Of a stretch of DNA of 64,000 nt, positions 41,289-63,804 are shown in pieces. The stretch is taken from contig CAZYXG010000004.1 in assembly GCA_964650885.1 (NCBI GenBank), positions 9,723 through 73,722 on the forward strand. Reading direction: 5' to 3'. Positions within the stretch are counted from its first letter, which is position 1, and the number at the start of each line of letters is the position of its first letter. The translations under genes and the position numbers were made by a program. A model generated the notes under the pieces. That model was given only the letters and a program-made list of their open reading frames with translations, searched no databases and was not told where the DNA came from. Source of the stretch: an uncultured Hyphomicrobiales bacterium (lineage in GTDB: Bacteria > Bacteroidota > Ignavibacteria > Kapaibacteriales > UBA2268).

Positions 41289-42002
41289 ATGAGTGATAAA
41301 GAAATATTGAGAGAAGAAGAAATAGAAGAAATTGAAGGCGGAGAAGAAACTACGTCTGGAAGTGGCTTCCAAATGGGTAAAACCCTGTTATACACAATCA
41401 TTGCGGTTGTTTTGGTGGTAGCTGGAGTAGGTGGATACTATTTCTATAAATCAGGTGTGAAGAAAGATAGCATAGAGTCAACTAAAGCATTGACAAGAAT
41501 TATTCCTTTATACCAACAAAATCAGTTTGAAAAAGCTTTAATGGGCGATAACTCAATATTGATTGATAACAAACCACTAATGGGTTTGGTAGCAATTGCT
41601 GATAAATTTAAAAACGAAGTAGGCAAGCAAGCAGCAGTATATGCGGCAAACTCATTTATGTTTACAAACAAAATGAATGATGCTGAGAAATACTTCAAAA
41701 TGGCAGCCGAAGCTGAAGACAAACTAATTAAAGTAGCAGCATATTCTGGCTGGGCACAATGCCAAGAATTGCAAGGCAAATTTGCTGAAGCGGCTGATAA
41801 CTATTCTAAAGCAGCAGATATGAGTGAAACAGATAATTTCAAAGTTAAAAATATGCTTTTTGCAGGGCTATGCTTTGAGAAAGCAAATAATAAAGATAAA
41901 GCAGTTCAAAACTTTAAAGATGTGATTGGCACAAACAGAGTTTCTGAGTACGCAAGAGTTGCTAAAGGACGCTTAGCGTTGCTTGGCATAATTATTGATT
42001 AG
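41289..42002 (+). CDS. Membrane-anchored TPR-like protein (YfgM-like architecture)
   Basis: 237 aa. Acidic N-terminus MSDKEILREEEIEEIEGGEE, one TM helix LLYTIIAVVLVVAGVGGYYFY, then an alpha-helical TPR-like periplasmic domain. Same topology and size as E. coli YfgM. Confidence 0.55.
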   Translation: MSDKEILREEEIEEIEGGEETTSGSGFQMGKTLLYTIIAVVLVVAGVGGYYFYKSGVKKDSIESTKALTRIIPLYQQNQFEKALMGDNSILIDNKPLMGLVAIADKFKNEVGKQAAVYAANSFMFTNKMNDAEKYFKMAAEAEDKLIKVAAYSGWAQCQELQGKFAEAADNYSKAADMSETDNFKVKNMLFAGLCFEKANNKDKAVQNFKDVIGTNRVSEYARVAKGRLALLGIIID

Positions 42003-42144
42003 TACAATCTGTTGAAAGACATTGAAAATCAATAAAATGGCTAAAATCAGGATGATTGAAGCCAAGAATAATAAAAAAATAAATATGAAAATGAGAAATA
42101 ATAGTAATTTTTTAAAAAATAAAATTTTGTTCATCGGAGGTATT

Positions 42145-45100: not shown

Positions 45101-48100
45101 TTAATACTTCTAACTTTACAAGCATTTCATTTGTTGGTTCTAACTCAGGTTATGTTACAACAAATAATGGTTATGTAATTAGAACTTCAGATGCTTTTGT
45201 ATCTAATTTCAATACAAATATTGATAACAATGGTATTCAAGCTAGCCCTCTGAATAATATTTACACTTCTGGTGTAGATAACTATACTGCAGTTGGTGAA
45301 GTTAAAACTATCTTGAAAAGAGATTTAGGATTCCCTTCTTTCACTTTCCAAGTTTCTCCAGTAAATGCTGTATTTAATACAGTATGGTACACTTCTTCTA
45401 CAAGAGGTTATATTGGTGGTACTAACGGTACTATCTTGAAAACTATCAATGGTGGTATAGACTGGAATCAAACAATCAACCCTGCAACTGGTACTATCGG
45501 TGCATTGACATTCGTATCTCCTTCTAAAGGATTTGCTGTTAATGGTTCTGGAAAAGTATTAACTACAGTTGATGCTGGTGATACATGGACAGAAATAACA
45601 GGTAACACAAACTTAAACGCATTGTATGATTTATCATTCCCAACGCCATCAATTGGTTTTGCAGTTGGTAATGCAGGTACATTGCTGAAATCAACTGATG
45701 CTGGCGCTACTTGGAAATCTGTTGGTCCAAATGATCAAAGTGTAGTTGATGTAGTAAGAAAACACAAAGGTACTGATTTGCCAGAAAATGGTATCGGTCT
45801 TGGTGGTGCAATTTACTTATTAGATAAAGCAAACATTGCAAGAATTGGTCGTAGAGATTCAATTCAGTTCAACCGTGTAAGAATGCAAAATAACGAATCT
45901 TATACAGGTTCTGTTATTTATTCTGATAACTACGATTTGAAATTGATTTTAAATAGAACATTGATTATTGGAAACAAAGCTAACTCTAAAGTTGGTGTAA
46001 CTCAAAATGTAATCACTGGTCCAATCGAAAGAGACAACACTGGTAGAGTAATTGCGAACAAAGCATCTTCAGATTTAGTACCTGCTACTATTTATGGTGA
46101 GATTCAAGGTCCATTGCCAAGTGCAAGTTTCTCTGTTGCAGCAAACTCAATTTATAACAATGATGCAAAATTCTTAATTAGATTACCAGATGCACCTAAT
46201 ACTAAAGGTGTATTGGCTGGAACATTGGGTCTTGGACTTGGTGGTACAGATACATTGCGTGGTAACTATTGGGGTCAAACTGAAGCTAACGTAATTTTGG
46301 AAATTCAAAATATCGTACTTGGTGCAGCGAAAACAACTCAAGAAACATTCTTTGTGGAAGGTAATGGTACTACAGTAATGAAATTTATTCCTACTGCTAC
46401 TACTAACTTAACTGAACAAGGTCCTTTTGAGTCAATTTCAAGATATGCTTACACTCCAATTCCATCTATGAATAATGTGAACAATGAAGATTTAGCAGCT
46501 GCTAATACTATTCCAGAAAACTTATTGCTTTCTGGTAAAGTATATGACATTTATGACAAAGGTACAGATGTTAAAACTGCTGATTATTCAAAACGCAGAA
46601 TGTCTCCAATTGAAGATTTCGCTGTTGGTATTGCACCAATTTCAAGAACTTATGCAGTAGCGAATACTCCTTCAAATGGTAAACACGTAAAAAGATACAT
46701 TCGTGATCCATTTGCAACTGAAGCATTATCATCTGGTACATTGACTAACCCTTGGTTAGCTTCTATGCAAGATGAATTTAGAAATGATGCAAATGGTAAT
46801 AGTTACCAACCATTAGGTATGCCTTTATTCTTAGAATCTAGAGTAAACTATGATGGTCTAATTGAAAATAGCAACCACGATCCATTGATGTTGAATGAAG
46901 CAGTTTACTTTGTAATCAACCAGACTTCTGGTGATTTAATTAGAGTAAACATGAGACAATTAAGTGAAGATGCACCAGGAAGAGAATTATTAAGAGCTAG
47001 AGTTGATTTAGTTCCAGATTCAACAATTTCTCCTGCAACTCCACTTGAAAGATACAATAGAGCATCTATAAGAAGAAGCGGTGAAGGAATTGCAAACTAT
47101 GGTATCGGAAGTGATATCTTGAACGCACTTTATAGAAACGCTGATAGAGAAGATAAAGCTGTTTTAGTTGGTAGAAAATATGATGCAAACATCACTGATT
47201 TTGCAAACGACGCATCTATATTCTCTAACAGACCAAGTATTACTGGTAAAGCAACTTATTTTGCTGGCGAGAGATACAGAGCATTGCCAGTTTGTGTTGG
47301 CGATAAAATTCAAATTTTATCAAGAACTGCACTTTGGAATCAAGGTATAGCAGCTGCAGATGCTGGTTCAATTACTTTTACAATTAGTAACTCAACTATG
47401 CCTCCAAGATTTACTGGAAACATTATTAGCTTGCAAAAAGATACAATTGTTAAAATTGTTCCTTCTGAATTGCAAAGCAAACGTCTTTTAGGTATTCCTG
47501 ATACTATTAGAATGGTTGAACTTTTGAATAAAAAATTCATCACAGAAGATAGATCTTACCCTAGAGTAAGAGGTACTTATAGCTCAACTACAACATTGCC
47601 AGAAAATGGTCGTGGTACTGACTCAATTTTGACTGTAACAGCTACTGATACAAACAAATTCTATGACCCACGTTCATTCTTTGCACCTGACAAATTCCCA
47701 AGATTAACTTATACTTGGAATGTTGACCCAACTTCTGGTTTGGCTAGATGGATGCAAGCAGATACAATTAAAGTAACAAATGTAGGAACTCCAAATGCGA
47801 ATAGCCAAAACCCAAGAGACTTGGCGTTAGGTTATATCAAATTTAGAGGTCAAGCAATTAATCCTTATGTTGTTCCTGGTGGTGAAGATGTAACTGTAAC
47901 TGCTGCTAACTATCCACCATCTTTCAGATTGTTGGATACGTTAAAATCTTATGGCGTTACTGACCAAAATATTTTAGATTACTCTGTAAATATTTATGGT
48001 AAATACTTCCATGCTCCAGTTTATGATAACATCAATGCAAGATACTTGCAACAAGATACAATCAACAGTGGTAAAAACTTTACAGTTTCTCACACATACA

Positions 48101-50331: not shown

Positions 50332-50426
50332 TAAAATATTGTGTAAGCCCTTTTCTAAAGTAGAAAAGGGCATATACAATAAAAATAAAAATCTTGGAAA
50401 TGAAAAATAATAACGGAGTTAATAAA

Positions 50427-52343
50427 ATGAGAAAAAAAATCTACGGAGCTTTGGGAGCCCTTGCGCTTTCATTAACTATGCTCGTGCAGACTTCTACTGC
50501 TCAAATCTACGGTGAATTTGAAACCGTGAAAGTAGTACAAGAAAATTATACCCCTATTATAGGTGGTACAGTACATGCATCAACTGAATTCAAATCAGGC
50601 GATTTAGGAATCGGCGGCGTGACTGATAAAGATGATGGATATAAAAAAATAACATTGCCATTTACATTTGAATTTAATGGCGATAACTATGATGAAGTTT
50701 GGGTTAATGTTAATGGATATGTTCAGTTTTTGAAACCTGGCGTACTTCCTTTATCTTTACCTCAAAAATTAGGTACTCGTTTGTTTACATTTGACAACAG
50801 TAGTGTTGCCTATAATGTTGTTGCTCCTTTCTGGGGTGATCACTTTTATAGAGATGGAGGTGATATATCAAGTTCATTTACACCATCTTCAATAATTACA
50901 CAAGCTTTACCAAGCCTAAGTTCTGCTACAGTATTTACTATTGAGTGGAAAGACTTACAAGTAAATAGAGATATAACAAATTTAGCTAATACAAACTTGC
51001 AATCTTCTATTGCAAATTTTCAAGTTAAATTCTACAAATCTACTATTTCAAGTACAAAACAAGGCGATATCGAATTTTGCTATGGTTTAGTTGGTAATAA
51101 TCCTAGACTACCTTCTTCTACTACAATCACAGATGTAATTACAAGAAATGCATCTATTGGAGTGAAAGGCGATGTTGGTGATTTTATTAATGCATTGCAC
51201 AACGATGTTTTTGGAACACCTGCTTTGGCAAAGTCTTCAACAATCTTGACAACTGGATGGCAACCATCTGGCGGATCTAACAGAAGATTACGTTACATAG
51301 CTAAAAGAAACTTTAATGTTGCTGAATTCTGGGGTGATGGAGATGCTGACTTCTCTAAAGCTGAAGGAAGACCACACGCTGCTTTCTTTAATGTACAAAA
51401 CAGATATGTAACTATCAATGATGTTCGTGTAATCTTAAGAAGCGTTGCAAGAAGAATTCCATTAGACAGTATTAGAAGAAGAGCTGCATTCCACGCAGAC
51501 GTTACTCACAATGGCCGTTTCTACTATAATGGTGGTGTAAGAACTTCTATTCCAAATAGAGATTTGAACTATGATGAGAATTTACCAGCTGGTATTTCTT
51601 CTGAAAAAGTTGTTTATTACCAAGCAAATGAATTTGATGCAGCAATTATTTTAAATTATTTGTCTGCTAAATTACCTTCATTACCTTGGAGATACGACAC
51701 AGTTCCTTTATATGGAAAAGAAAAATTCGATGGTGCTTATGCTAACAGCATTAAATTAGGAACTTCAGTTAAAGATAATGGTATTGTAAGATTACCAATC
51801 TCTTTAAACGGTAGAATTAATGGTGCTTTAGGCGTTAAATTCAATGTGAATGGCGAAATCGTTAATGTTGTTGGAAACGGCGATAATAAATTAGCTTTTG
51901 ATTTTGATGGCAACACAGTTGTTATAGCTGGTGCTGGTGAATTCGCTGCTAACGAAGAAATTGCTTACCTTGATGTGAGAACTACTTCAAATGAAATTAA
52001 ATTGACTGATATAAATTTCAACGATAACCAAGTTGGCGAAATTTCAACTTTAGAATCATTGGAAGACAATGGCGCTAACTTAATGAATACTCCAAATCCA
52101 TTTAACACTACAACAGATATTAAGTTTGATGTTGCTGTTTCTGGAAACTATGCTTTAGCTATCTATGATGTTTATGGTAAACTTGTAAAAGAATTATCTA
52201 ACAATTTCTTGAATGCTGGAAAGTTTTCATTTAATTGGGATGGAACTACTCTTACTAATGAATCTGCTCAATCAGGTATGTACGTTGCTAAATTAACTTC
52301 TGGCAATAATACTTACACTGTTAAAATGGTTCTTACTAAGTAA
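50427..52343 (+). CDS. Hypothetical T9SS-sorted secreted protein
   Basis: Track ORF from 50394. Start ATG at 50427 (MRKKIYGALGALALSLTMLVQTSTAQ, with GGAG 9 nt upstream) or at 50394. The C-terminus NTPNPFNTTTDIKFDVAVSGNYALAIYDVYGKLVKEL...SGMYVAKLTSGNNTYTVKMVLTK is a CTD. Confidence 0.6.
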   Translation: MRKKIYGALGALALSLTMLVQTSTAQIYGEFETVKVVQENYTPIIGGTVHASTEFKSGDLGIGGVTDKDDGYKKITLPFTFEFNGDNYDEVWVNVNGYVQFLKPGVLPLSLPQKLGTRLFTFDNSSVAYNVVAPFWGDHFYRDGGDISSSFTPSSIITQALPSLSSATVFTIEWKDLQVNRDITNLANTNLQSSIANFQVKFYKSTISSTKQGDIEFCYGLVGNNPRLPSSTTITDVITRNASIGVKGDVGDFINALHNDVFGTPALAKSSTILTTGWQPSGGSNRRLRYIAKRNFNVAEFWGDGDADFSKAEGRPHAAFFNVQNRYVTINDVRVILRSVARRIPLDSIRRRAAFHADVTHNGRFYYNGGVRTSIPNRDLNYDENLPAGISSEKVVYYQANEFDAAIILNYLSAKLPSLPWRYDTVPLYGKEKFDGAYANSIKLGTSVKDNGIVRLPISLNGRINGALGVKFNVNGEIVNVVGNGDNKLAFDFDGNTVVIAGAGEFAANEEIAYLDVRTTSNEIKLTDINFNDNQVGEISTLESLEDNGANLMNTPNPFNTTTDIKFDVAVSGNYALAIYDVYGKLVKELSNNFLNAGKFSFNWDGTTLTNESAQSGMYVAKLTSGNNTYTVKMVLTK

Positions 52344-52344
52344 T

Positions 52345-53475
52345 TTGGAAAAGATATTGAAAATATGGCTACTTTTAATTGCTATCTTTGCGATAAGTAG
52401 CCATAATTCAATTGCTCAACCAAAGTTTCAGATTGTTCTGAAAAACAATAACGGTACCTTAGACTTATGTGGCAATAGTTTTAGAAAGGAAGTTCTATTA
52501 ACTGTTAACCTTGGATTAATTGAATCAAAAGATTCTCTTTTGGGATTTAATTTCAAGATAAAGTATGACACAAATAAAGTAAAATTTAATACTTATTTGA
52601 AAAGTAATACTTTGAGTGCGTTCTTTAATTTTGCTGATGGTAGAGTGTCAAGGACTGAACAAGGACTTTTTGCAAGCGGTGGACAAATCAATGATTTGTT
52701 TGTACCAATTGTTGGGAATAAGCCTCTTGTAGCTTTTGCTGGTGAATATATTGCTGATTGTAATGATTCAACTATAATTGAAGTCGAATATTTTGAGTTC
52801 AATGATGAGTTTACGAAAAAATTAGATATAGATACACCTTATGTTAGCCTGAAAGTACTTGGCGAAATTGAAAAAAAACCAGAAAGAAAAATGGTAGTCA
52901 ATTTCACAAAAGACACAATCGTAATTTATGCGGATAGTCTTTATGAGGAATCTTTCGAATTAACTTCAATGGCAAATAGTAAATCAGAGAATGTTACAGT
53001 AACTTTTACTAAAGATTCTGATAAAATTAGAATCACAGATTTAGTTGCCCAAGATAGCTCTGCTAAAGTAACTGTCTTTTTGAATGACTTTGCATTAACA
53101 CTTGCTGAAATTAATAATCAGCAAACTGGTATCACTAAAAAGTTTAAAATGAAGTTGAAATCTGAACTAGATGAAGATTTCGTTACTAAGATTTATACTA
53201 AAAGTGAAATCAATGTTAACTGCACTTGCATTACTGAGATATTTGAAGATAGCGTAACTGTTATAGTTAAAAAGAAACAAATAAATTCTGTCGTTGAAGA
53301 TAGAAACTATTACGAAAACTTGAAAAAAATTGACGTTTACAACTACTTAGGTCAAAGAGTGAAAGAAGTAAATAGTTTAATAGAATTAAACAAAATGCCA
53401 AACGGTATATATTTACTTGAAATAATATCTGAAGACAATACTAAAAGGTTACAAAAATTGATAATAAACAATTAA
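52345..53475 (+). CDS. T9SS-sorted protein with cohesin-like N-terminal domain
   Basis: 376 aa. Signal peptide MEKILKIWLLLIAIFAISSHNSIAQ. ...KEVLLTVNLGLIESKDSLLGFNFKIKYDTNKVKFN resembles the cohesin core (F.F.I.YD.N.L). The short CTD is ...DVYNYLGQRVKEV...PNGIYLLEIISEDNTKRLQKLIINN. Starts 2 nt after the upstream gene. Confidence 0.5.
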   Translation: MEKILKIWLLLIAIFAISSHNSIAQPKFQIVLKNNNGTLDLCGNSFRKEVLLTVNLGLIESKDSLLGFNFKIKYDTNKVKFNTYLKSNTLSAFFNFADGRVSRTEQGLFASGGQINDLFVPIVGNKPLVAFAGEYIADCNDSTIIEVEYFEFNDEFTKKLDIDTPYVSLKVLGEIEKKPERKMVVNFTKDTIVIYADSLYEESFELTSMANSKSENVTVTFTKDSDKIRITDLVAQDSSAKVTVFLNDFALTLAEINNQQTGITKKFKMKLKSELDEDFVTKIYTKSEINVNCTCITEIFEDSVTVIVKKKQINSVVEDRNYYENLKKIDVYNYLGQRVKEVNSLIELNKMPNGIYLLEIISEDNTKRLQKLIINN

Positions 53476-53507: not shown

Positions 53508-56500
53508 ATGAAGGATTTTTTAACAAAAATGAAAAGCGGTAAGTTTATGCTTGCGTTTATGCTATTAATGGCATTAACAATTGCATCTACAGACTTATAC
53601 AGCTTAGCTTATGGCGGAAAACCACAAAAGCCACGTCTTAGTTTGACTGGAGCGGCTGATGGTTTTAACTCTGATTGGTACCCTGATGGTAAAATTTGGT
53701 TGCCAATATCTGCAAATGGTACAAGAGAATTCTTAATGCCAGTATTTCTTGATAATAGATACGATACAAGAATTGTAAGAAGAACTACTCCACCATTGCC
53801 AGATACTATCTACTACGTAGTAGATCCTATCAAAAGTTTTAGATTTAAAATTATGTACGATAGCGCTGCTGTAAGAGTTGTCGGTGTACAAGCTACAAAT
53901 CCAGACAATGCTCCTGTAGATTTGTCTGAACAACCATTAGCTAATAGTTTCAATATTTCATGGAGCGATTCAGCTGATGTGAAATACATGTACTATGTTA
54001 GAGATGGAAGTTTAACTAATCCAAATTATACAGGGCCTACAAGTGCTGATGCACTTAGAGGTAGATCAGTAACTATTACTGGTGCTTCAGATAAAGCTTT
54101 GGCAAGTACTTATAATAGCCCGAACAATCCTGATCAAGGAGTTAACTATAAAGTTTTGGTTTATGTTAAATTTAGAATCGTACCAAAATCAGACGCTGAT
54201 TTGACTACTTCTAGATTAACTCCAGTATATATTTCACCAGATGAAATAATGTACAATAACTGGAATGCTGCGAAAGATCCAATTTTACCTTACTATAGAG
54301 AAAATGCTAATTCTGCTGCCCAGTGGGCTTCAGATTATACTGGTGAGACATATTCACCTGCTAATTATTTTGGTCAAAAAACTTTAGCAAACGTTTATGT
54401 AGATCAAACAAGAGCTTTGGCTGGTATTAACAATACTTCTGAAAGAGAAAATAACTTACAATTGCCTCCAAGTCCTTGGGGTAGTTTATGGGTTAGATTT
54501 TTCTCAACTCCATCTTTATTTGCATTTAAATCAAACAGATCTATTGATCCTCCAAGAGCTATTTCTAAATTAAGTAAAACTGTTAACGGTCAAGTTGTAG
54601 AAGATCCATCTAATTGGGAAATTATTACTCCTATTACTGTTGATAACAACCCAAGTAACCCAAGTGTTGGCACTAGAGAAATGGAAATCTTTTTGGAAGG
54701 AAGCGGAACAAGAGCTACTGACGTAACTATTGAATCTGATTCTCCTTGGTTGCTTTTCTCAAGCAAAACTGGTGCTGCTTATAAATCAAGTCCATCTATG
54801 TCTTCACCTACAAGAAGTGGTTACATTAACTGGTTGGATAATGGTATTTTGGGCAAAAATGGTTTAGCTACTCCTACAGTATTAGGTGGCGATGCACCAG
54901 AAGAATTAATTTCTGCTATCAATATCCTATGCGATCCAAGTAAATTGACTTTAGGAAATGGAGAGAAAGAAGGTATCCATGTAGGTTACTTGACTTTCAG
55001 ATCTAACTTTGCTAACATTTCTCCTACTAGAGTGAAAGTTACTTTTATTTACTTTAAATCTCCACAAGAGGGTATTAGAGCTGGTGCAGCTCCTGGTATC
55101 AAAATCAAAATGAGAAACTCTAAACCAGTTACTCCTGATACTACATCTTTGATTTTTGGAACAGGCCCTAGAGCTACTAGAGGTGTTGATACGCTTTATG
55201 GTGAATATGCTAAAGAATTCTGTAGCTTCTGCCCAAGTGCTAGCCCAAGAGTTTTTGGTGCTGCTTTCTTCCCTTATAGAATGAAACCTGCTGATTCATT
55301 GGCTACAGCTAAATTTGGTTTTGGTGATTTTTCTAAAAATGACGAAAAACCATATTCTGCTTCTAGAGATATTAGAAGTGTAGATGATTCAACTGAATCA
55401 ATTACTTACTTAGTGAATTTCTTTGCTAATGGCGATGCGAATTACCCTGTAACATTGGAATGGGATTTGAGAGATTTCCCTGATGGTGCAAGTTTGTTTT
55501 TGAAAGATAACTTGAATGGTGGTGGTTTCCCTGCAGTAGATATGAGAAATACTACTGTAACAGGTCAATATACTCGTTCTTTCGTAATTCAAGATCCAAA
55601 AATTACTTCTTACTTGATTGAATATACATTGCCAACAGTAATTGATTACGTTGATGATAACAAATTGCCAATCATTAAAACTGGTTGGAACATGCTTTCT
55701 ATGCCTGTTAAACCAACTAATACTCAATACCGTAATATTTACAGAAATGCTATTGCAAAACCATACAACTATGCACTTGGTAACTATCAAGAAAATGATG
55801 TGCTTACAGCTGGTGTTGGTTATTTTGTGAAATATGGTGTTACTATTGATAGTAAATTCTCTGGTTCTGTGATTACTGAAATCTCTCCAGCTGTTGGAAA
55901 TACTGTAAAAGTATGGCCTGGCGATGCTGGAAAAGGTGGATGGAATTCAGTTGGTGGTTTATCTTTCCCAACTTCAATAACAAATATTGATTTTGAAAAA
56001 TTTGGAACTGTTGCTTTACCAGACAAAAACTATACATTGAAATTTGGTGTTTGGACTTACAAAACTAGCAATGGTTATTTTGAAGTTTCTGAAATCAAAC
56101 CAGGTTTGGGTTACTTCATTAAAGTTGATAAAGATGGTTACTATAAATTGACTAACCCTAATATTAAAATGGGTGTCAATATGTTGACTAATGGTAAAGA
56201 AGCAATTTACAATGCTTCTACTGCTATCAATGTTGTTGATAACGCAAACAGCAAATCTGTTGTTTACTTATCAAACAATACTGAGTTAGAAGTAGAAAAC
56301 TTTGAAATGCCTCCAGCTCCTTCAACTAATATGTTTGATGTACGTTTTGCTACTACAAATACTAACTTAGTAAACAATGATAATGCAGTTATCAGCATGC
56401 AAGGTGTTACTTACCCTGTATCTATATCTGCTAAAAATGCTAACTCTAACTTGTCATTTGTTGATGCAGTTACTGGTGAAGTATTTGGTAACATTTTGAA

Positions 56501-56834
56501 AGGTTCAGAGAAAAACATTGAAATTAAATCTAGTTCAAGTGCAGTTAGAGTTATAGCTACTGAAAGCAATGATGAAGCATCATCTTTCGTTAATTATCCT
56601 AACCCAGTAACTAACAATACTAATTTCAACTACAGTGTAGCTAACAATACCAACGTAACAATTGAAATCTACAATCAAGTAGGTTCAGTAGTTGCAACTG
56701 TTGTTAATGAATTCCAAAAAGCTGGAAATCACACAGTATCATTTGACGCAAGCAACTTGCCAAGTGGTTCTTATGTTGTGAAATTCAACTCTAATGGTAC
56801 TACTGCTACTCGTACAATTTCTATCGTTAAGTAA
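53508..56834 (+). CDS. Hypothetical large (1108 aa) T9SS-sorted secreted protein
   Basis: Signal peptide/TM MKSGKFMLAFMLLMALTIASTDLYSLA. No assignable catalytic motif. The C-terminus YPNPVTNNTNFNYSVANNTNVTIEIYNQVGSVVATV...SGSYVVKFNSNGTTATRTISIVK is a CTD. Confidence 0.6.
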   Translation: MKDFLTKMKSGKFMLAFMLLMALTIASTDLYSLAYGGKPQKPRLSLTGAADGFNSDWYPDGKIWLPISANGTREFLMPVFLDNRYDTRIVRRTTPPLPDTIYYVVDPIKSFRFKIMYDSAAVRVVGVQATNPDNAPVDLSEQPLANSFNISWSDSADVKYMYYVRDGSLTNPNYTGPTSADALRGRSVTITGASDKALASTYNSPNNPDQGVNYKVLVYVKFRIVPKSDADLTTSRLTPVYISPDEIMYNNWNAAKDPILPYYRENANSAAQWASDYTGETYSPANYFGQKTLANVYVDQTRALAGINNTSERENNLQLPPSPWGSLWVRFFSTPSLFAFKSNRSIDPPRAISKLSKTVNGQVVEDPSNWEIITPITVDNNPSNPSVGTREMEIFLEGSGTRATDVTIESDSPWLLFSSKTGAAYKSSPSMSSPTRSGYINWLDNGILGKNGLATPTVLGGDAPEELISAINILCDPSKLTLGNGEKEGIHVGYLTFRSNFANISPTRVKVTFIYFKSPQEGIRAGAAPGIKIKMRNSKPVTPDTTSLIFGTGPRATRGVDTLYGEYAKEFCSFCPSASPRVFGAAFFPYRMKPADSLATAKFGFGDFSKNDEKPYSASRDIRSVDDSTESITYLVNFFANGDANYPVTLEWDLRDFPDGASLFLKDNLNGGGFPAVDMRNTTVTGQYTRSFVIQDPKITSYLIEYTLPTVIDYVDDNKLPIIKTGWNMLSMPVKPTNTQYRNIYRNAIAKPYNYALGNYQENDVLTAGVGYFVKYGVTIDSKFSGSVITEISPAVGNTVKVWPGDAGKGGWNSVGGLSFPTSITNIDFEKFGTVALPDKNYTLKFGVWTYKTSNGYFEVSEIKPGLGYFIKVDKDGYYKLTNPNIKMGVNMLTNGKEAIYNASTAINVVDNANSKSVVYLSNNTELEVENFEMPPAPSTNMFDVRFATTNTNLVNNDNAVISMQGVTYPVSISAKNANSNLSFVDAVTGEVFGNILKGSEKNIEIKSSSSAVRVIATESNDEASSFVNYPNPVTNNTNFNYSVANNTNVTIEIYNQVGSVVATVVNEFQKAGNHTVSFDASNLPSGSYVVKFNSNGTTATRTISIVK

Positions 56835-56920
56835 TTCACTTAACTTAGAGATACAATTCTATAAATGGGTAACATTATTGCAATGTTACCCATTTTATTT
56901 TTTTAGATGGAAATAATGAA

Positions 56921-57664
56921 ATGAAAAAATATTTTCTCTTATTAATGTGCTTATTTGCAACTAAACTTGTTGCTTCTGAAGATATTGAAATTAAGTTAAA
57001 AATTACTAACGAAGAAAATTCAAATTATACTCTTACCCTTGGGGTGAGCGATACTTTGACAGATAATTATGATGAGGGTAGTAATTTAGAAAGAGATATG
57101 CCTGATTTTCCACCTTCAGAAGGTATATTGCCATATTTTAAAATATATGCTGAATCGCAAAAAGTTGATATATATTCGCAAGCCGATATAAAAAAATTAG
57201 AAAAAGATAGTTTAAGTTTTACTAAAAAATATAAATTAGTTATTTTAGGAAACAGTCTTTCCGATTATACATTGGAATGGTTCTTAAGTCCAAAGTATAT
57301 TAGGTCTGCTAAAATATTAGATGAGTTTGGCGGAAATGTATTAAATATAGATATGCTTAAGCAATCAACTGTAAAAGTTAATAGATTTTTGAAAGATATA
57401 ACTATTGAAGTTGTGTATTTGAATCCAACTATGGATTTGCCAATTGAAGATAAATTAAATTTGAAGTTTTATCCTAACCCTAGTAAAGATATGATAAGTT
57501 TCTCACAAAATGTAACAAAATGGGAAATATTTGATTTGTTGGGTAATAAGATAATTTCTGGCAGCGAAAAAGAAATTGATTTAAGAAATTTCGCTAATGC
57601 TTGTTATTTGATTAAATTGCATTCAAAAGAAGGTACCAAGTACCAAAACTTGATAAAAGAATAA
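56921..57664 (+). CDS. Hypothetical small T9SS-sorted secreted protein
   Basis: 247 aa. Signal peptide MKKYFLLLMCLFATKLVASE. The C-terminus LKFYPNPSKDMISFSQNVTKWEIFDLLGNKIISGSEKEIDLRNFANACYLIKL is CTD-like. Confidence 0.55.
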   Translation: MKKYFLLLMCLFATKLVASEDIEIKLKITNEENSNYTLTLGVSDTLTDNYDEGSNLERDMPDFPPSEGILPYFKIYAESQKVDIYSQADIKKLEKDSLSFTKKYKLVILGNSLSDYTLEWFLSPKYIRSAKILDEFGGNVLNIDMLKQSTVKVNRFLKDITIEVVYLNPTMDLPIEDKLNLKFYPNPSKDMISFSQNVTKWEIFDLLGNKIISGSEKEIDLRNFANACYLIKLHSKEGTKYQNLIKE

Positions 57665-57672
57665 TAACCTTT

Positions 57673-58701
57673 ATGGAAAAAGAAGAAAAAAAGAAAGTAG
57701 AAAGTGAAACTGGGCAGCAAAAACCTAGAAAACCTCGCTTTGCAAACAATAGAAATAATTTCTCTAGCGATACTGCTATTTCTGTGGTAATACCTTTGCT
57801 AAATGAGGAGGAATCGCTAAAAGAACTTTCTCAAATGCTAGAAGTAGTATTGGAAAAAGAAGTAGGCAAAAAGTATGAAGTACTTTTTATTGACGATGGC
57901 TCTACTGACAAATCATTCGATGTGATTAAAGAAATACACGCTAAAAACTCAAACTTTAAAGTAATCAGATTCAGACGTAATTATGGTAAATCAGCTGCTT
58001 TAGCAATTGGTTTCGATAAAGCTCGTGGAAAAGTAGTCATAACAATGGATGCCGATTTGCAAGACGATCCCAATGAAATACCTAATTTAATGGCTAAAAT
58101 TAAGGAAGGTTACGACTTGGTCTCTGGTTGGAAAAAAACAAGACACGATCCAATTGGTAAAACTTTACCAAGTAAGTTTTTCAATTTCGTCACTTCAAAA
58201 GTTTCTGGAATTAAGCTTCACGATTTTAATTGTGGATTGAAAGCATACAAAAGAGAAGTTACTAAGTCTCTAAAAGTTTATGGCGAAATGCACAGGTACT
58301 TGCCAGCATTAGCTCATATTGATGGATTCAAAGTAACCGAGATTCCTGTATTGCATCATCCCAGACTTTATGGCAAATCAAAATTTGGTGCATCAAGATT
58401 TGTGAAGGGCTTTTTAGATTTAACAACTGTAGTCTTCACAACTAAATACTTGAAAAGACCATTGCACTTTTTTGGAACAATAGGTGTCTTATTTATGCTG
58501 ATTGGATTCATTATTGACTTATATTTAAGCTATATTTGGCTATATAAAAATGAGTCTTTGAGCAACCGACCATTGGTACTTTTTGGTGTTGCGTTGATTA
58601 TTGTTGGCGTTCAGTTCTTCTCTACTGGTCTTTTGGGCGAATTGCTTGTTAAGAATAGTAACATTAAAGAAAATTACTCAATTAAAGAGCAAATATTTTA
58701 A
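57673..58701 (+). CDS. GT2 polyprenyl-phosphate glycosyltransferase (ArnC/GtrB/DPM1-like) with C-terminal TM helices
   Basis: 342 aa. ISVVIPLLNEEESL, FIDDGSTDKS and ...ITMDADLQDDP are the GT2 DXD motifs. Two C-terminal TM helices. A 35-aa charged N-terminal extension. Starts 9 nt after the upstream gene. Confidence 0.75.
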   Translation: MEKEEKKKVESETGQQKPRKPRFANNRNNFSSDTAISVVIPLLNEEESLKELSQMLEVVLEKEVGKKYEVLFIDDGSTDKSFDVIKEIHAKNSNFKVIRFRRNYGKSAALAIGFDKARGKVVITMDADLQDDPNEIPNLMAKIKEGYDLVSGWKKTRHDPIGKTLPSKFFNFVTSKVSGIKLHDFNCGLKAYKREVTKSLKVYGEMHRYLPALAHIDGFKVTEIPVLHHPRLYGKSKFGASRFVKGFLDLTTVVFTTKYLKRPLHFFGTIGVLFMLIGFIIDLYLSYIWLYKNESLSNRPLVLFGVALIIVGVQFFSTGLLGELLVKNSNIKENYSIKEQIF

Positions 58702-58703
58702 AA

Positions 58704-59510
58704 ATGAAAATGAAATTAATAAAATACATAATAAATATTCTTACTGTATTAATGCTTGTGGTAACGCTTAAAGCTGAAGATTCTATACCTAAAGCTAAGT
58801 ATAGTTCACAGTTAGATCCGAAGAAAATATTCCCTTATAACTACACTTTGGGAATTGGAATTTCTACTGTGAAAATACTAAATCCAAACCCAAATTCTAG
58901 ATCTATGAATCCTTTGGTGCATAGAGATGGCTATATTGGTGGAAGTTTTAAAGGAGCTATGCCTGGAATAGATTTAAGAGCTACTTTCCAATTAGATGAA
59001 GATGGTTTATGGAGAATGCCTGTGGGTTTGGATATGACTTTTTACAGTGCTAGAGAAAGATTACCTATCACTACGAGATTGACAGACAGATTCGAAAATA
59101 ATGCAAATATTTACGCTCCATATATTGGGCTTAATTATACTGTTTTGCAAATTCCAAAAGCGAGAGCTTCTTTCTATTTTGGTTTGGAAGCTAGAGCTTC
59201 TATTATAGATGGCCCCGCATTCAGATTTATTAGAACTTACGATTTGATTCCAGAGCAAAGTTTTGATATTACAGAACACAACAAAGAAAATACTGTGCGA
59301 CTTGGTGGCTTGGTGAAATTCGGACTTGAAGGCGAATTAGTTGATAACTATATGATAAATAGTAGCGTGGGCTATGGAGTATTGAATACATTCTTGCGAG
59401 ATAATGCCAGAGGCGAACTTTTGACTCCAAGGAAAGACTTTGAAACAAGAGAGTCTTACTTACAAGGTATCTTCTTTACGGTAATGCTTCAATACAGATT
59501 CAATAAGTAA
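58704..59510 (+). CDS. Putative outer-membrane beta-barrel protein
   Basis: 268 aa. Signal peptide MKMKLIKYIINILTVLMLVVTLKA. Alternating amphipathic strands, ending ...FFTVMLQYRFNK. Starts 3 nt after the GT2 gene. Confidence 0.5.
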   Translation: MKMKLIKYIINILTVLMLVVTLKAEDSIPKAKYSSQLDPKKIFPYNYTLGIGISTVKILNPNPNSRSMNPLVHRDGYIGGSFKGAMPGIDLRATFQLDEDGLWRMPVGLDMTFYSARERLPITTRLTDRFENNANIYAPYIGLNYTVLQIPKARASFYFGLEARASIIDGPAFRFIRTYDLIPEQSFDITEHNKENTVRLGGLVKFGLEGELVDNYMINSSVGYGVLNTFLRDNARGELLTPRKDFETRESYLQGIFFTVMLQYRFNK

Positions 59511-59518
59511 TTTCTAAT

Positions 59519-60628
59519 TTGTTCATCGCAATTAATAATCAAATGTCTTCTAAATCACTATTTTATCATTCGGACTGTTTTCATTTTAAAGGGGATTTGC
59601 CTTGCAAACCTCATAAAGAATTTGATGTGCATTGTTCGGATTGTAGCTATTATAAAAAAGAAGAAGGCAAAATACTGATTATAAAGCTTGGTGCTTTGGG
59701 CGATGTAATTCGTACAACTCCTCTGCTTGAAAAATTAAGAAAAGAATACCCTAAACATTCAATTTGGTGGGTAACTTACTCGCCTGATATTCTTCCATCG
59801 GATGCAATTGATAAAATATTCAAATTGAACTTTGAAAGCTATTTACAGCTTAAAAACACCGAATTCGATATAATCTATAGCTTGGACAAAGATATTCCAG
59901 CTTGCAGCTTAGCAAAAGAATTAAACGCAAAGCAAAAGTTCGGCTTCACTTTGGAAAATGGGAAAGCTGCTCCTATAAATGAACTTGCTCAACACAAATT
60001 CAATACTGGGCTTTTTGATGATGTCAATAAAGCGAACACTAAATCTTATGTGGAAGAGATATATGAAATTTGTGGTTTCAAATTTAATGGCGAAGAATAT
60101 GTGCTTGATGTTACTTCTGATAAAGCATGGGATTTGCAAGGCAGTCAAGGAAAGAAAATAATTGGTTTGAATACTGGATGTGGCGATAGATGGGTTTCTC
60201 GACTTTGGGCAGATGAAAATTGGATTGCTCTAATCAAATTACTCCAAGCGAATAACTATTATCCATTGCTTTTGGGCGGTGCGGCAGAAGAAGAAAAAAA
60301 TAAATACTTTGCCGAAGTTACTGGAGCTCACTATGCTGGGAATTTCAGCTTGAAAGATTTCATTTCGCTTATGAACCAATGTGAATTAGTAGTAACAGCT
60401 GTAACTATGGGTATGCACATTGCCATGGGTTTGAAGAAAAAACTTGTGCTTATGAATAATATATTCAATAAGCATGAATTTGAGCTTTATGGCAGAGGTG
60501 AAATAATAGAGCCACTAAAGCAATGTCATTGCTATTTTGCTGCTAGTTGCAAACATACAGAATATAGTTGTATGGAACATTTGCCAGTTGAATTAATATT
60601 TAATTCAATCGAAAAACAAACTAAATAA
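59519..60628 (+). CDS. GT9-family glycosyltransferase (LPS heptosyltransferase-like) with Cys-rich N- and C-terminal extensions
   Basis: 369 aa. The GT9 core has KILIIKLGALGDVIRTTPLL and ...LLGGAAEEE... N-terminus: SDCFHFKGDLPCKPHKEFDVHCSDCSYY. C-terminus: LKQCHCYFAASCKHTEYSCMEH. Confidence 0.65.
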   Translation: MFIAINNQMSSKSLFYHSDCFHFKGDLPCKPHKEFDVHCSDCSYYKKEEGKILIIKLGALGDVIRTTPLLEKLRKEYPKHSIWWVTYSPDILPSDAIDKIFKLNFESYLQLKNTEFDIIYSLDKDIPACSLAKELNAKQKFGFTLENGKAAPINELAQHKFNTGLFDDVNKANTKSYVEEIYEICGFKFNGEEYVLDVTSDKAWDLQGSQGKKIIGLNTGCGDRWVSRLWADENWIALIKLLQANNYYPLLLGGAAEEEKNKYFAEVTGAHYAGNFSLKDFISLMNQCELVVTAVTMGMHIAMGLKKKLVLMNNIFNKHEFELYGRGEIIEPLKQCHCYFAASCKHTEYSCMEHLPVELIFNSIEKQTK

Positions 60629-60660
60629 GATTCGCTTAATTGTTTCTTTAAAAATGAAAA

Positions 60661-61674
60661 GTGGGACAACAGAAAAATATATTTTTAGCAAATAAGAAAA
60701 TCTGTGTGGTTCGCACCGATAAAATTGGCGATATGATTTTGACATTGCCACTTGTAAGAGTAATTAAATTAAACTTCCCCGAAAAAGAAACTATATTAAT
60801 AGCTCAGAAAATTAATAAGCCAATCATTGAAAATAATCCCTTTATAGATAAAATTTATTATATAGATGATTACAAAAATATAGATGATATATTTAAAGAA
60901 GCAGAAATAAAAGTAGCATTTTTTCCAAGACCAAACTTTTCAGAAATTTTTTCAGCTTTCAAATCTGGTGTTTCTCTTAGAATTGGAATTACTTCACGTT
61001 GGTATAGCTTTTTGTTTAATTTCAAAGTTAAGCACCATAGAAGTAAGGGCGAGAAAAATGAAGCTGAATACAACGTAGAAATGCTAAATAATTTATTTGA
61101 AACAAACTATGAAACTATTCTATGTGATATAAATGTTGTGCCTGCAACATTACAAAGTTTGGAAGTAAAGTTGAATCAGAAAAGAATTAATTTAGATGCT
61201 GATTTCGTTATATTCCATCCAGGTTCTGGTGGTTCTTCTCTTGATTGGTCAACAGATAATTTTGCAGAATTGGCAAGTATGTTAACTCATGAAGGCAAAA
61301 CAATAGTTTGCACTGGCGATAAAAATGACAAAATACTTTGCAGTAGAATTGAAGCAGAAGCACCAAACATAAAAAATGTTTCTGGATTATTGAATCTGGA
61401 AGAAACTATTGCCCTGATAAGCAAAGCAAAGGGTTTGATAGCAAATTCCACAGGCATAATACATATTGCGGCTGCCCTAGGAGTGTCAGTTTTGGGTTTA
61501 TACCCAAACAAGCCACAGTTGAGTGCAAACAGATGGGGCCCTTGGACAAAGAATAGAAGGATTGTTAGACCTCCTCAAAGCAATGATTTACAAAAAAATG
61601 ATGATATGAGTTTGATTAGTGTTGATAAGGTTTACAGAGAATTAATACAATTGCTTAATGGGAAATTTAATTAA
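60661..61674 (+). CDS. GT9-family glycosyltransferase (LPS heptosyltransferase-like)
   Basis: 337 aa with a GTG start. KKICVVRTDKIGDMILTLPLVRVIK is the GT9 N-terminal motif. ...FHPGSGGSSLDW... and ...IANSTGIIHIAAALGVSVLGLY... follow. Confidence 0.65.
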   Translation: MGQQKNIFLANKKICVVRTDKIGDMILTLPLVRVIKLNFPEKETILIAQKINKPIIENNPFIDKIYYIDDYKNIDDIFKEAEIKVAFFPRPNFSEIFSAFKSGVSLRIGITSRWYSFLFNFKVKHHRSKGEKNEAEYNVEMLNNLFETNYETILCDINVVPATLQSLEVKLNQKRINLDADFVIFHPGSGGSSLDWSTDNFAELASMLTHEGKTIVCTGDKNDKILCSRIEAEAPNIKNVSGLLNLEETIALISKAKGLIANSTGIIHIAAALGVSVLGLYPNKPQLSANRWGPWTKNRRIVRPPQSNDLQKNDDMSLISVDKVYRELIQLLNGKFN

Positions 61675-62653
61675 ATACTTATTTATTAGTTTAACTTTAT
61701 TGCTGCTTTCGAGTTGTTTAGATGACCCGATTCGTAGCGATAACAAAGAAAAATCTATTTATAGTGCTAAATTGATAAATGGTAAGGTGTGGGTTTGTGG
61801 CAATGAAGGGCTAACTGCACAAAGCCAAGATGGAATTAATTTTATTAAAAGCCCAAGCAATACAAATACATATTTAGATATTGCTGGCTTTGGTACAAAT
61901 CTTTGGCGTTGTGGTGCCAATGGACGTATTGAATATTCGTCAAATAACGGAAGTTCATGGGAAACACAAAATACTGGAACAATTAAATACATTAAATCAA
62001 TTCAATTTTTAGATGATAATATTGGATATGCTGTGGGTCAGAAAGGACTTTTAATCAGCACAACAGATGGTGGCAAAACTTGGCTAAATAAAAGTTTTTC
62101 AGAAACTTATGATTTGAATAAGATTAAATTTTTGAATAATAATTTTGGAATTATCTCGGCGTGGAATAGAAATGGTGCAGTTGCAACAATCTATGTTACA
62201 AAAAATGCTGGATTAACTTTCGATACAATATACCCAGGTGCAAATAATTATTTTTCTGATATATTTATAGCTAGCGAGAAAGAATTTTATTTGGCTGCGG
62301 CAAAAGAAATATATAGAACAAAAGATAGTGGACAAAGCTTTGGCGTAATCACAGATTTGCCAGTAGTAAATAGTGATGAACTTGATAGCCCAAGCACAAT
62401 TGAATCAATTCAAGTAATTGGCAACGATATGTATTTTGCTGGATACTTTGGGCATAACTTAGGTAGAATTTATAAATTAGATATGACAAATAATAGCACT
62501 ACACTTTTATATAATGGCGATAAATTAATTAGCTGCTCGGCACTTATAGTACAAAATCAAAATTTGATTTCATACGGTGGCTATGGCTATAAAGTGCTAT
62601 ATAAAAACATTAACGATGCTCAAGCAGTTTGGAATTTAAAGGCAATAGAATGA
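61658..62653 (+). CDS. BNR/Ycf48-like beta-propeller lipoprotein
   Basis: 331 aa. Lipobox ...LTLLLLSSC. Asp-box-like SSNNGSSWETQNTG, TTDGGKTWLNKS, TKNAGLTFDT and TKDSGQSFG. Overlaps the GT9 gene by 17 nt. Its stop overlaps the rlmN start (ATGA). Confidence 0.6.
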   Translation: MGNLIKYLFISLTLLLLSSCLDDPIRSDNKEKSIYSAKLINGKVWVCGNEGLTAQSQDGINFIKSPSNTNTYLDIAGFGTNLWRCGANGRIEYSSNNGSSWETQNTGTIKYIKSIQFLDDNIGYAVGQKGLLISTTDGGKTWLNKSFSETYDLNKIKFLNNNFGIISAWNRNGAVATIYVTKNAGLTFDTIYPGANNYFSDIFIASEKEFYLAAAKEIYRTKDSGQSFGVITDLPVVNSDELDSPSTIESIQVIGNDMYFAGYFGHNLGRIYKLDMTNNSTTLLYNGDKLISCSALIVQNQNLISYGGYGYKVLYKNINDAQAVWNLKAIE

Positions 62654-63804
62654 ACGATGGAACAATAAATAATTTTTCGAATGACATTATTGAATTGCCG
62701 ATTGTAGCAAAACAATATAATATCTATGGTGTTACTTTAAAAAAACTACAAACGCTTTGCGTATCGCTTGGAATGGAAAGCTATAGAGCTGCCCAGATTT
62801 TTAATGCGTTATACAAACAAAAAGTATCAAGCTTCAGTGAAATCAAACAAATCAAAAAAGAAAATCAAGAAAAGTTAGCCGAGAAATTTACTTTTGAAGT
62901 ATTTAATTCAGTTAAAAAGCAAATTTCTATTGATGGTTCTGTGAAATATTTATTTAAGCTATTCGATGGCAAATCAATCGAATCAGTCTATATGCCTTGG
63001 CTAAGCGATGATTCTAGTATTTTAGAACGCACCACGCTTTGTATTTCATCTCAAGTGGGTTGTGCTGTAGATTGTACTTTTTGTGCCACTGGCAAGCTCG
63101 GATTCACTAGAAATTTAGATACTGGCGAAATTATTAGTCAAATAATGTTTATTGAAAAAGACTTAAACATTAAACTTACTAACATAGTTTTTATGGGAAT
63201 GGGCGAACCACTACTTAATTATAAAAACGTGGTGGACTCTATAGATATTATGACTGACGAAAACTCTGGGCTGCTGAATAGAAAGAAAATCACAGTCTCA
63301 ACTTCGGGAATAGTGCCGAAAATATCGCAACTTTCAAAAATTGATAAACCAGTGAAATTAGCAATTTCCCTGCACGCTACCACTAATGGGGTGCGAGATA
63401 AAATAGTTCCGCTCAATAAGAAAATGAATATTGATGATATTATGGAAGCTGTGGAAGATTACTACCGAACCACAGGACTTGCTATTACTTATGAATATAT
63501 CCCATTTAAAGATTTGAACGATACAGAAGCCGATGCAAAACGATTAGCAAAAATTTGCAAAAGAGTTCCTTCGAGAGTGAATTTAATACCATTCAATGAT
63601 ATTAGCTTCACTGCTCCAACTGGTGTGGCTGCAGAGCTTAGACCATCCTCAGCAGAAAAAGTGATTGAATTTGCAGAACAAATTAGAAAATTTGGCGGAG
63701 TAGCAATTGTGCGAGATACATTCGGCAGAGATATAGATGCCGCTTGCGGACAGTTGGCTTTATCGGAAAAAGTAAACGACAAAATAATGGATTTGAAACT
63801 ATGA
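62650..63804 (+). CDS. rlmN: 23S rRNA (adenine2503-C2)-methyltransferase, radical SAM
   Basis: Track ORF from 62629. The ATG at 62650 gives an ATGA overlap with the upstream stop. CISSQVGCAVDCTFCATGKLGFTRNL is the radical-SAM CX3CX2C. ...VFMGMGEPLLN... and ...TFGRDIDAACGQLA are colinear with E. coli RlmN. Confidence 0.85.
   Translation: MNDGTINNFSNDIIELPIVAKQYNIYGVTLKKLQTLCVSLGMESYRAAQIFNALYKQKVSSFSEIKQIKKENQEKLAEKFTFEVFNSVKKQISIDGSVKYLFKLFDGKSIESVYMPWLSDDSSILERTTLCISSQVGCAVDCTFCATGKLGFTRNLDTGEIISQIMFIEKDLNIKLTNIVFMGMGEPLLNYKNVVDSIDIMTDENSGLLNRKKITVSTSGIVPKISQLSKIDKPVKLAISLHATTNGVRDKIVPLNKKMNIDDIMEAVEDYYRTTGLAITYEYIPFKDLNDTEADAKRLAKICKRVPSRVNLIPFNDISFTAPTGVAAELRPSSAEKVIEFAEQIRKFGGVAIVRDTFGRDIDAACGQLALSEKVNDKIMDLKL

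Follow-up and report, generated by a model that had tools for sequence, protein, structure and literature searches.

To our knowledge, how type IX secretion system (T9SS) cargo is anchored is largely unknown outside Porphyromonas. In Porphyromonas gingivalis, this cargo is bound to an anionic lipopolysaccharide (A-LPS) (PMC6590471, PMC7323717), and attachment of proteins carrying the T9SS C-terminal domain (CTD) needs glycosyltransferases of both family 9 (GT9) and family 2 (GT2), in a pathway that includes the GT9 Rfa, the GT2 enzymes GtfC, GtfD and GtfF, WaaL, and the Wbp and Vim proteins. Rfa (PGN_1255), a lipid A-core enzyme required for A-LPS (PMC6590471, PMC7323717, PMC8003790), appears alongside several GT2 enzymes in the list of genes for A-LPS biosynthesis, which are scattered and lie outside the cargo operon. 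Here, we describe a locus in a 64,000-nucleotide (nt) stretch of DNA from an uncultured bacterium (the window) where genes for a GT2, a small outer-membrane β-barrel and a cysteine-rich GT9 (Cys-GT9) follow an array of genes for T9SS CTD proteins. In contrast to P. gingivalis, the GT9 and GT2 of this locus are physically linked to the cargo array; Wbp, Vim, WaaL and Wzy genes are absent from the locus, and its unit additionally comprises a small CTD protein and a small barrel of its own. Coordinates are positions in the window, and genes were taken from a six-frame list of open reading frames (ORFs).

The single enzymes of the locus resemble those of other described systems. A GtrB-like GT2 cooperates with a flippase and a GT-C enzyme such as YfhO to add sugars to polymers of the envelope at a site outside the cytoplasm (PMC5836110, PMC7389260). 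With the ArnC/ArnT, GtrB/GtrC and CsbB/YfhO systems, the GT2 described here shares an alignment to ArnC and GtrB along its full length, but a GT9 always accompanies it, a partner that is absent from the classical systems. The heptosyltransferases TibC and AAH share with Cys-GT9 a GT9-like fold, a Cys4 cluster, which in TibC is an iron finger, and a gene near that of a β-helical surface adhesin (PMC4358343). A literature search found no description of the present cluster in Ignavibacteria, Kapabacteria or Chloroherpeton.

Gene order behind the T9SS cargo array

The link between the trio (GT2, barrel and Cys-GT9) and the cargo holds at the level of conserved gene order. This was established with a survey anchored on Cys-GT9, with one genome per species, which comprised the best 80 loci of the at least 576 species genomes that carry this gene. 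All window proteins were searched against the 80 loci, and counts were restricted to loci with enough flanking sequence. Of 72 loci, 59 have GT2 as the upstream neighbour of Cys-GT9, and 55 have the barrel between the two genes. The cargo array is found upstream in 29 of 54 loci, with its closing 1108-aa cargo gene adjacent in 29 of the 54; it is present in 29 of the 42 loci with both GT2 and barrel and in none of the 11 without the barrel (Fisher p = 5e-5, phylogeny not corrected for). Array adjacency was thus seen only in barrel-carrying loci. The conserved order is a tetratricopeptide repeat (TPR) protein, four large T9SS proteins, a terminator, a small CTD protein, GT2, the barrel and Cys-GT9.

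Array-linked loci include records labelled Kapaibacterium, Ignavibacteria/Ignavibacteriota, Chlorobiota and Chloroherpeton. The window contigs themselves recur in JGI, ENA and Logan metagenomes, and the nearest named relatives are metagenome-assembled genomes (MAGs) of Kapaibacteria and Ignavibacteria. Several locus-bearing MAGs (L015, L021, L022, L023, L030, L031, L054 and others; relatives are cited by locus number) are labelled Hyphomicrobiales, Desulfobulbaceae, Chloroflexota or Patescibacteria; these labels are probably wrong or the contigs mis-binned.

The same gene order was found in L007 and L008 (barrel 45 to 53% identical), in L011, a Kapaibacterium contig, and in L012, an Ignavibacteriae genome, where a giant CTD protein is followed by proteins of approximately 630, 380 and 1080 aa, a CTD protein of approximately 250 aa, GT2, a barrel of approximately 250 aa and Cys-GT9. 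Relatives keep this order at 45 to 60% identity. After Cys-GT9, these four loci continue with a PIF1 helicase, a 104-aa ORF, an NAD synthase or a tRNA methyltransferase. Clustering of the downstream genes served as a control for slow genome rearrangement, and the gene 3' of Cys-GT9 belongs to 17 unrelated families in 32 array loci, the largest family having 7 members. The scrambling of this flank, next to eight upstream genes kept in order while the cargo has diverged to 31 to 47% identity, indicates that the conserved block ends at Cys-GT9.

In the window, the block lies on the forward strand and opens with a 237-aa TPR protein (41289 to 42002; TPR Pfam matches), the gene of which ends 19 nt before the giant cargo gene. 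L094 and L096 share with the window a TPR gene of 237 to 245 aa immediately ahead of the giant gene, and for this reason it is counted as a member of the block. The 237-aa protein has weak matches to PorW/SprE and to the TPRs of SycD-type chaperones. The giant T9SS protein of 2769 aa (42022 to 50331) combines Chlam_PMP repeats, two Ycf48/BNR propeller regions and a type-A CTD. Its homologues, of 2394 to 2769 aa, occupy the equivalent position in L007, L008, L009, L011 and L012, and identity across the 29 array-bearing survey loci is 31 to 47% (tblastn). Three further CTD proteins follow: one of 649 aa (50394 to 52343; Por_Secre_tail and FlgD_ig matches), the position of which is kept in the survey loci at 33 to 41% identity, one of 376 aa (52345 to 53475; position kept at 23 to 34% identity), and one of 1108 aa (53508 to 56834; CTD E 9e-11) that closes the large-cargo array. 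With the small CTD protein described below, this gives five upstream proteins with TIGR04183 scores of 26.6, 36.4, 24.8 (the 376-aa protein), 40.1 and 32.3 bits, all above the cut-off of 23. The C-terminal TIGR04183/PF18962 matches identify all five as T9SS type-A CTD cargo, in agreement with the original prediction for this stretch. In Pfam and NCBIfam scans of the large cargo proteins, only CTD, BNR and PMP repeats were matched.

The 1108-aa cargo gene is separated from the 247-aa CTD gene by a canonical intrinsic terminator or attenuator hairpin (56863 to 56895, forward strand) that was absent from the original prediction. It consists of a 14-bp perfect stem and a U-run, with a minimum free energy of -20 kcal/mol (z -4.5; 0 of 200 shuffled sequences as stable). 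In nearly all of the array loci (L007 to L088), strong folding, in agreement with the window's terminator, was also computed for the spacer between the homologue of the 1108-aa gene and the small CTD gene (about -17 to -53 kcal/mol), which suggests that the array and the glycosyltransferase unit are differentially expressed. Given the terminator, this unit probably begins with the gene for the small T9SS CTD protein of 247 aa (56921 to 57664, forward strand; CTD E 6e-9) and is not simply fused to the array transcript. Of the earlier proposal that the module is fused onto the cargo array, the adjacency and the gene order stand, with the terminator lying between the two. GT2 is immediately preceded by a CTD ORF of 206 to 282 aa in 37 of 55 survey loci, among which are all those with the array and the array-less L033; such an ORF is likewise found in the array-less L013, a relative known before the survey. 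Since the iterated hidden Markov model (HMM) for this small protein drew in all CTD proteins, it was applied only with filters for size and position.

The trio also occurs without the array, in 13 of 42 loci. In L017, L024 and L046 it lies behind divergently oriented genes, which indicates that it is a three-gene unit in its own right; in L049 a 97-aa ORF stands in between. The trio is preceded by FtsH and the small CTD protein in L033 and by PorV and a sigma-70 gene in L069; the upstream ORFs of L072 and L082 match those of L069 in size, and for L072 the identity of the sigma-70 gene was confirmed. The neighbour-joining tree of Cys-GT9 has one large clade whose loci nearly all carry array, GT2 and barrel, and the other groups are trio-only clades and a barrel-less clade of Flavobacteriales, Chitinophagales and Sphingobacteriales MAGs, in which Cys-GT9 occurs without the array. 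This pattern points to an array linkage that is old and maintained and that arose in few independent events.

In the trio-only loci L017 (2598 to 7086) and L024 (3097 to 6591, reverse strand), the genes on the divergent side encode very large proteins, each combining several GT2 domains with TPR repeats, and include a second GT2 gene, a further glycan-related setting of the trio.

The distribution of Cys-GT9 bears on the possibility, which we regard as real though rather unlikely, that GT2, Cys-GT9 and a second GT9 of the window (GT9b) are housekeeping genes for the core of lipopolysaccharide (LPS), their position being inherited in one clade and the barrel being an unrelated small outer-membrane protein. 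Cys-GT9 is 53 to 63% identical across survey loci that span several Bacteroidota lineages, is present in at least 576 species, and in array-less Flavobacteriales MAGs stands beside LptF/G and GT4 genes. In loci of the Crocinitomicaceae type, the order is LptF/G permease, Cys-GT9, GT4, GT4, and these surroundings are a core-LPS context. Housekeeping genes could also be expected to stand as a trio on their own, to show array linkage concentrated in one clade of the Cys-GT9 tree, and to be separated from the array by a terminator, all of which was seen. They would not account for a downstream flank scrambled into 17 families next to an ordered upstream block, for a small CTD protein that stays with the trio where the array has been lost (L013, L033), for PorV ahead of the trio in L069, or for the confinement of array adjacency to barrel-carrying loci. 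Taken together, these last observations lower the probability of the housekeeping explanation. The occurrence of GT2 and Cys-GT9 without cargo across Bacteroidota nevertheless indicates that both are general envelope-glycan enzymes, and the earlier view of a modification dedicated to the cargo has to be given up.

The Cys-rich GT9 and the GT2 enzyme

Cys-GT9 (59543 to 60628, forward strand; 361 aa) matched PF01075 with 42.4 bits, against a cut-off of 22. In its AlphaFold2 model (AF2; mean confidence, pLDDT, 94), it has a GT-B fold for which the nearest structures in Foldseek are GT9 enzymes (3tov, 8e-16; WaaC, 1e-13; WaaF, 5e-13; TibC, 6e-9), and the N-terminal GD motif aligns with the motif at the start of WaaC. 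Together with the Pfam match, the predicted fold places the protein in GT9. The likeness to WaaC, WaaF and WaaQ, which are the best structural matches of the model, lies in the GT-B fold and the GD catalytic motif, and also in the LptF/G-GT4 setting of Cys-GT9 in Flavobacteriales. Cys-GT9 differs from them by extra segments at the N terminus (approximately 40 residues) and at the C terminus, with four conserved cysteines each, and by its unusually high conservation. The cysteines are arranged as C12-x8-C21-x9-C31-x2-C34 and C328-x-C330-x5-C336-x6-C343. An alignment of 17 sequences shows no variation at any of the eight; one of 57 sequences shows none at six of them and a conservation of at least 90% at C12 and C21. 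The two clusters are putative structural metal sites.

The equivalog cut-offs for WaaC, WaaF and WaaQ (134 to 569 bits) are not reached by either GT9 of the window, the highest scores being 53 bits for Cys-GT9 and 81 bits for GT9b. An ADP-heptose donor and a Kdo/heptose acceptor would fit the genomic context, namely the LptF/G-GT4 neighbours of Cys-GT9 and a KdsB-like neighbour of GT9b. The original prediction had named clear orthology to housekeeping waaC/waaF in a conserved core-LPS context as evidence that would count against it. This is in part what was found: the order of LptF/G, Cys-GT9 and GT4 supplies such a context, and the scores for the waaC/waaF equivalogs fall short. GT2 and Cys-GT9 most likely act on LPS.

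The cysteines and the neighbourhood of Cys-GT9 also raise the question of protein glycosylation. The sugar could be transferred to the cargo in the periplasm, from the lipid-linked form made by GT2 through a PMT_2 or YfhO GT-C enzyme, as in Pgf/PMT-like systems, and/or Cys-GT9 could glycosylate the giant protein in the cytoplasm, as TibC and AAH do with autotransporters. For the first route, GT2 scores 165 bits with PgfS, an enzyme that modifies surface adhesins (bioRxiv 10.1101/2022.10.10.511621), far below the equivalog cut-off, and a PMT_2-family gene follows the GT2/Cys-GT9 pair in one relative (L090). For the second, the C-terminal Cys4 cluster recalls the iron finger of TibC (PMC4358343), to which the model has the structural match already mentioned, and the giant protein carries Chlam_PMP β-helix repeats. 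However, LPS-type GT9 structures (E about 1e-16 to 1e-13) match far above TibC, and a PDB search with the Cys-GT9 family profile failed to recover TibC at E ≤ 10. Moreover, the C-x-C-x5-C-x6-C spacing differs, as does the position of the cysteines, from Cys339/342/358/370 of TibC, and in place of the N-terminal β-barrel domain of TibC there is the Cys-rich segment of approximately 40 residues. Cys-GT9 is further unlike TibC and AAH in that it shows no detectable sequence kinship to them and occurs in many genomes without any adhesin, including array-less genomes in which it stands beside LptF/G. Assignment to the autotransporter heptosyltransferases (BAHT) was therefore rejected, and glycosylation of the cargo itself by either route appears improbable.

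The GT2 gene (57673 to 58701, forward strand) encodes a protein with a PF00535 match of 112.6 bits (cut-off 23.3; E 2.5e-32). Residues 35 to 325 align to residues 9 to 295 of ArnC (9hwj, E 7e-53), and GtrB (5ekp, E 1e-32) and DPMS (E 1e-20) are also matched over the whole length. The translation contains two hydrophobic helices, at about residues 265 to 290 and 300 to 325, corresponding to two C-terminal transmembrane helices. Across the survey loci, GT2 is 55 to 70% identical. By these sequence matches, it is a predicted polyprenyl-phosphate sugar synthase of the ArnC/GtrB/DPMS type. It was rejected as ArnC proper, with an NF007986 score of 198 bits against a cut-off of 529 and no arnA, arnB, arnD or arnT genes nearby.

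A polyprenyl-phosphate sugar would call for a GT-C partner, and the original prediction had concluded from the lack of an ArnT-like transferase that the pathway was incomplete or novel. Indeed, none of the 31 window proteins scanned was a GT-C enzyme or a GtrA-like flippase. In L074 and L092, however, an orthologous GT2/Cys-GT9 pair (55 to 58% identity) is directly followed by a YfhO-type GT-C enzyme, and in L090 the pair is followed by a methyltransferase and then by a PMT_2 enzyme of the ArnT/PMT type, an arrangement that recalls three-component glycosylation; all three are barrel-less relatives. YfhO is also found approximately 3 kb from the trio in L017 and beside rlmN in L096. With the GtrB/YfhO precedent, these neighbours make it simplest to suppose that the missing ArnT is encoded elsewhere in the genome. 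The GT-C partner of GT2 is thus probably encoded at another site in this genome, and the case for an incomplete or novel pathway is weakened.

The outer-membrane barrel and lineage-specific neighbours

The gene between GT2 and Cys-GT9 (58704 to 59510, forward strand) encodes a 268-aa protein that matched no Pfam or NCBIfam model. A signal peptide and eight main transmembrane strands are seen in its AF2 model (pLDDT 78), which agrees with the earlier description of an outer-membrane β-barrel. A profile search of 1.84 billion proteins recovered 167 clusters (50% identity), of which 156 had E ≤ 1e-10; a word-based homology search had under-counted the family, with 11 matches. The conserved residues include K194, R199, N228, R236 and E250. 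Two motifs are also conserved: RGELLT, in a predicted surface loop, and the loop motif NPNSRSMNPLV. Among small 8-stranded barrels, OmpW, NspA, the N-domain of OmpA and PagL are only 7 to 13% identical and give no family HMM match, and the present protein stands apart by its own loop motifs and its fixed position between GT2 and Cys-GT9. The protein represents a new family of predicted 8-stranded outer-membrane barrels.

The original prediction had considered PagL, PagP, LpxR or OmpW for this protein, and a lipid A- or LPS-modifying enzyme of the PagL, PagP or LpxR kind could complete an LPS remodelling begun by the two transferases. The barrel fold does match such enzymes, but OmpW, NspA, OmpA and designed barrels all reach equal Z, so that the fold match is generic. 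None of the four families was matched in Pfam at E ≤ 0.01, and in 66 distinct members of the family every His and Ser position is less than 90% conserved, which argues against a PagL/PagP-type hydrolase. Several of the conserved barrel residues are charged (K194, R199, R236, E250). Conserved charged residues in the barrel interior are known from non-enzymatic 8-stranded barrels such as OmpA. Assignment to any of the four was rejected, and a role as lipid A enzyme is very unlikely.

The original prediction joined five genes, from GT2 to a BNR lipoprotein, into one module. All five ORFs are present on the forward strand, and the labels GT2, two GT9 and BNR lipoprotein were borne out by Pfam scans and an LSSC lipobox. 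The junctions read from the sequence give gaps of 8 nt between the 247-aa CTD gene and GT2, 2 nt between GT2 and the barrel, 8 nt from the barrel to a TTG at 59519 or 32 nt to the ATG at 59543, and 32 nt between Cys-GT9 and GT9b, so that the spacings first given (9, 3, 9 and 33 nt) were correct within one base. The ATG at 59543 is taken as the start of Cys-GT9, as backed by gene callers on identical metagenome contigs and by alignment of homologues. The 17-nt overlap of GT9b with the lipoprotein gene and the ATGA overlap into rlmN at 62650 were both seen as well.

As a conserved module, the five genes did not hold together. In none of the 80 survey loci is GT9b, the BNR lipoprotein or rlmN a neighbour of Cys-GT9, and the three follow it only in the clade of the window and in L013. 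The expectation that the glycosyltransferase genes follow the array was thus borne out for the trio (29 of 42 loci) and failed for GT9b and the lipoprotein. The flagged stretch is a composite of a conserved part, from the small CTD protein through GT2 and the barrel to Cys-GT9, and a lineage-specific part of GT9b, BNR lipoprotein and rlmN.

GT9b (60661 to 61674, forward strand; GTG start, 337 aa) is a conventional GT9 (PF01075, 85 bits) that is widespread among genomes, with WaaF (1psw, E 3e-11) as a structural match. Recent duplication of the two GT9 genes was ruled out by an identity of 28% over 54 aa. In L094 and L096, GT9b stands across the array from the trio, where it adjoins YkuD and a KdsB-like cytidylyltransferase and is next to rlmN and a 298-aa gene; in L095 it is found beside YkuD on a contig distinct from that of the Cys-GT9 of the same genome. 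These neighbourhoods indicate that the arrangement in the window is a lineage-specific rearrangement of an older one. The next gene (61658 to 62653, forward strand) encodes a Ycf48/BNR-type β-propeller lipoprotein of 331 aa (PSII_BNR, E 1e-9; LSSC lipobox), seen only in the window clade and L013. The lipoprotein has in common with the giant cargo protein (residues ~950 to 1240) only the Ycf48-like/BNR repeats (37% identity over 60 aa). The housekeeping rRNA/tRNA methyltransferase gene rlmN (62650 to 63804, forward strand; TIGR00048, 347 bits, cut-off 290) lies outside the system and is followed, past the end of the window, by a 296- to 298-aa gene without family match (L001, 15098 to 15994). 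The pair of rlmN and the 298-aa gene stays together in L013, L094 and L096, with a varying location relative to the array; in L094 and L096 it is on the opposite side. GT9b, the lipoprotein and rlmN were brought beside Cys-GT9 recently, through rearrangement.

Elsewhere in the window, a further T9SS CTD protein of 1009 aa with an IgGFc_binding domain (14381 to 17410, reverse strand) is not linked to the array. An 891-aa protein (20325 to 23000) has both a POTRA domain and a domain of the patatin-like phospholipase type. Two adjacent ORFs of approximately 410 aa (31340 to 32572 and 32577 to 33800), downstream of a glycogen/starch synthase gene, have no Pfam match.

A proposed link between LPS and T9SS surface proteins

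The explanation that we favour, with a probability of about one half for the whole of it, is that an LPS form made by GT2 and Cys-GT9 is the matrix to which the T9SS proteins of the array are attached or in which they are embedded. Cys-GT9 would be a cytoplasmic GT-B enzyme that transfers a sugar from a nucleotide sugar onto a lipid A-Kdo/core acceptor, and GT2 would join a sugar to polyprenyl phosphate at the inner membrane. Once flipped, this sugar would be passed to LPS or another envelope acceptor in the periplasm by a GT-C enzyme of the YfhO/PMT_2 type that is encoded elsewhere. The barrel would be an outer-membrane protein that turns its conserved loops to the outside and serves the surface assembly, as an anchor, a dock or an LPS-interacting partner and not as a lipid A hydrolase. 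The enzyme pair belongs to the general envelope equipment of Bacteroidota; in Ignavibacteria/Kapaibacteria/Chlorobiota it acquired the barrel and has been kept beside the array. The linkage is most likely explained by a need of the T9SS surface proteins for the LPS form that these enzymes make, as in Porphyromonas with its A-LPS. The literature agrees with this precedent, which the original prediction had invoked, in that the GT9 Rfa of P. gingivalis is required for A-LPS (PMC6590471, PMC7323717).

Several observations weigh against this explanation. Every equivalog cut-off for GT9 and ArnC is missed, and the GT-C enzyme and flippase that the scheme calls for are absent from the window proteins scanned. 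The terminator between array and unit argues against strict co-transcription. GT2 and Cys-GT9 also occur without cargo, so that the adjacency could be inherited synteny; the array-linked loci essentially form one large Cys-GT9 clade, and hence represent few independent events. The role given to the barrel is purely inferred. On balance, functional coupling of the trio to cargo anchoring is plausible by analogy with A-LPS. The earlier suggestion of an LPS or glycan modification linked to the cargo keeps the support of conserved gene order and of the A-LPS precedent, and has lost its dedicated status and its five-gene boundaries.

A bolder version of the favoured explanation, which we hold only tentatively and consider doubtful, is that the small CTD protein, GT2, the barrel and the eight-cysteine GT9 form an unrecognised anchoring module for a giant T9SS surface structure, with the barrel as its receptor or anchor. 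A metal-binding GT9 and a lipid-linked-sugar synthase would then build a special glycolipid, replacing the dispersed A-LPS functions of Porphyromonas. The barrel occupies the position that the GT-C enzyme has in relatives, which leaves open a final transfer at the outer membrane.

That LPS or glycan genes serve T9SS display is a known theme; what is new here is the eight-cysteine GT9 subfamily and the small outer-membrane barrel family. Neither the Cys-GT9 subfamily, with at least 576 species, nor the barrel family, with its 167 clusters, has a curated model or a characterised member. The locus provides a compact and conserved candidate gene set that is physically tied to an array of surface proteins across many environmental lineages. 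If the link is not real, the boundaries of the module are still corrected and the missing ArnT is largely accounted for. If it is real, the chemistry of the LPS core would be joined to T9SS surface display far beyond the oral pathogens.

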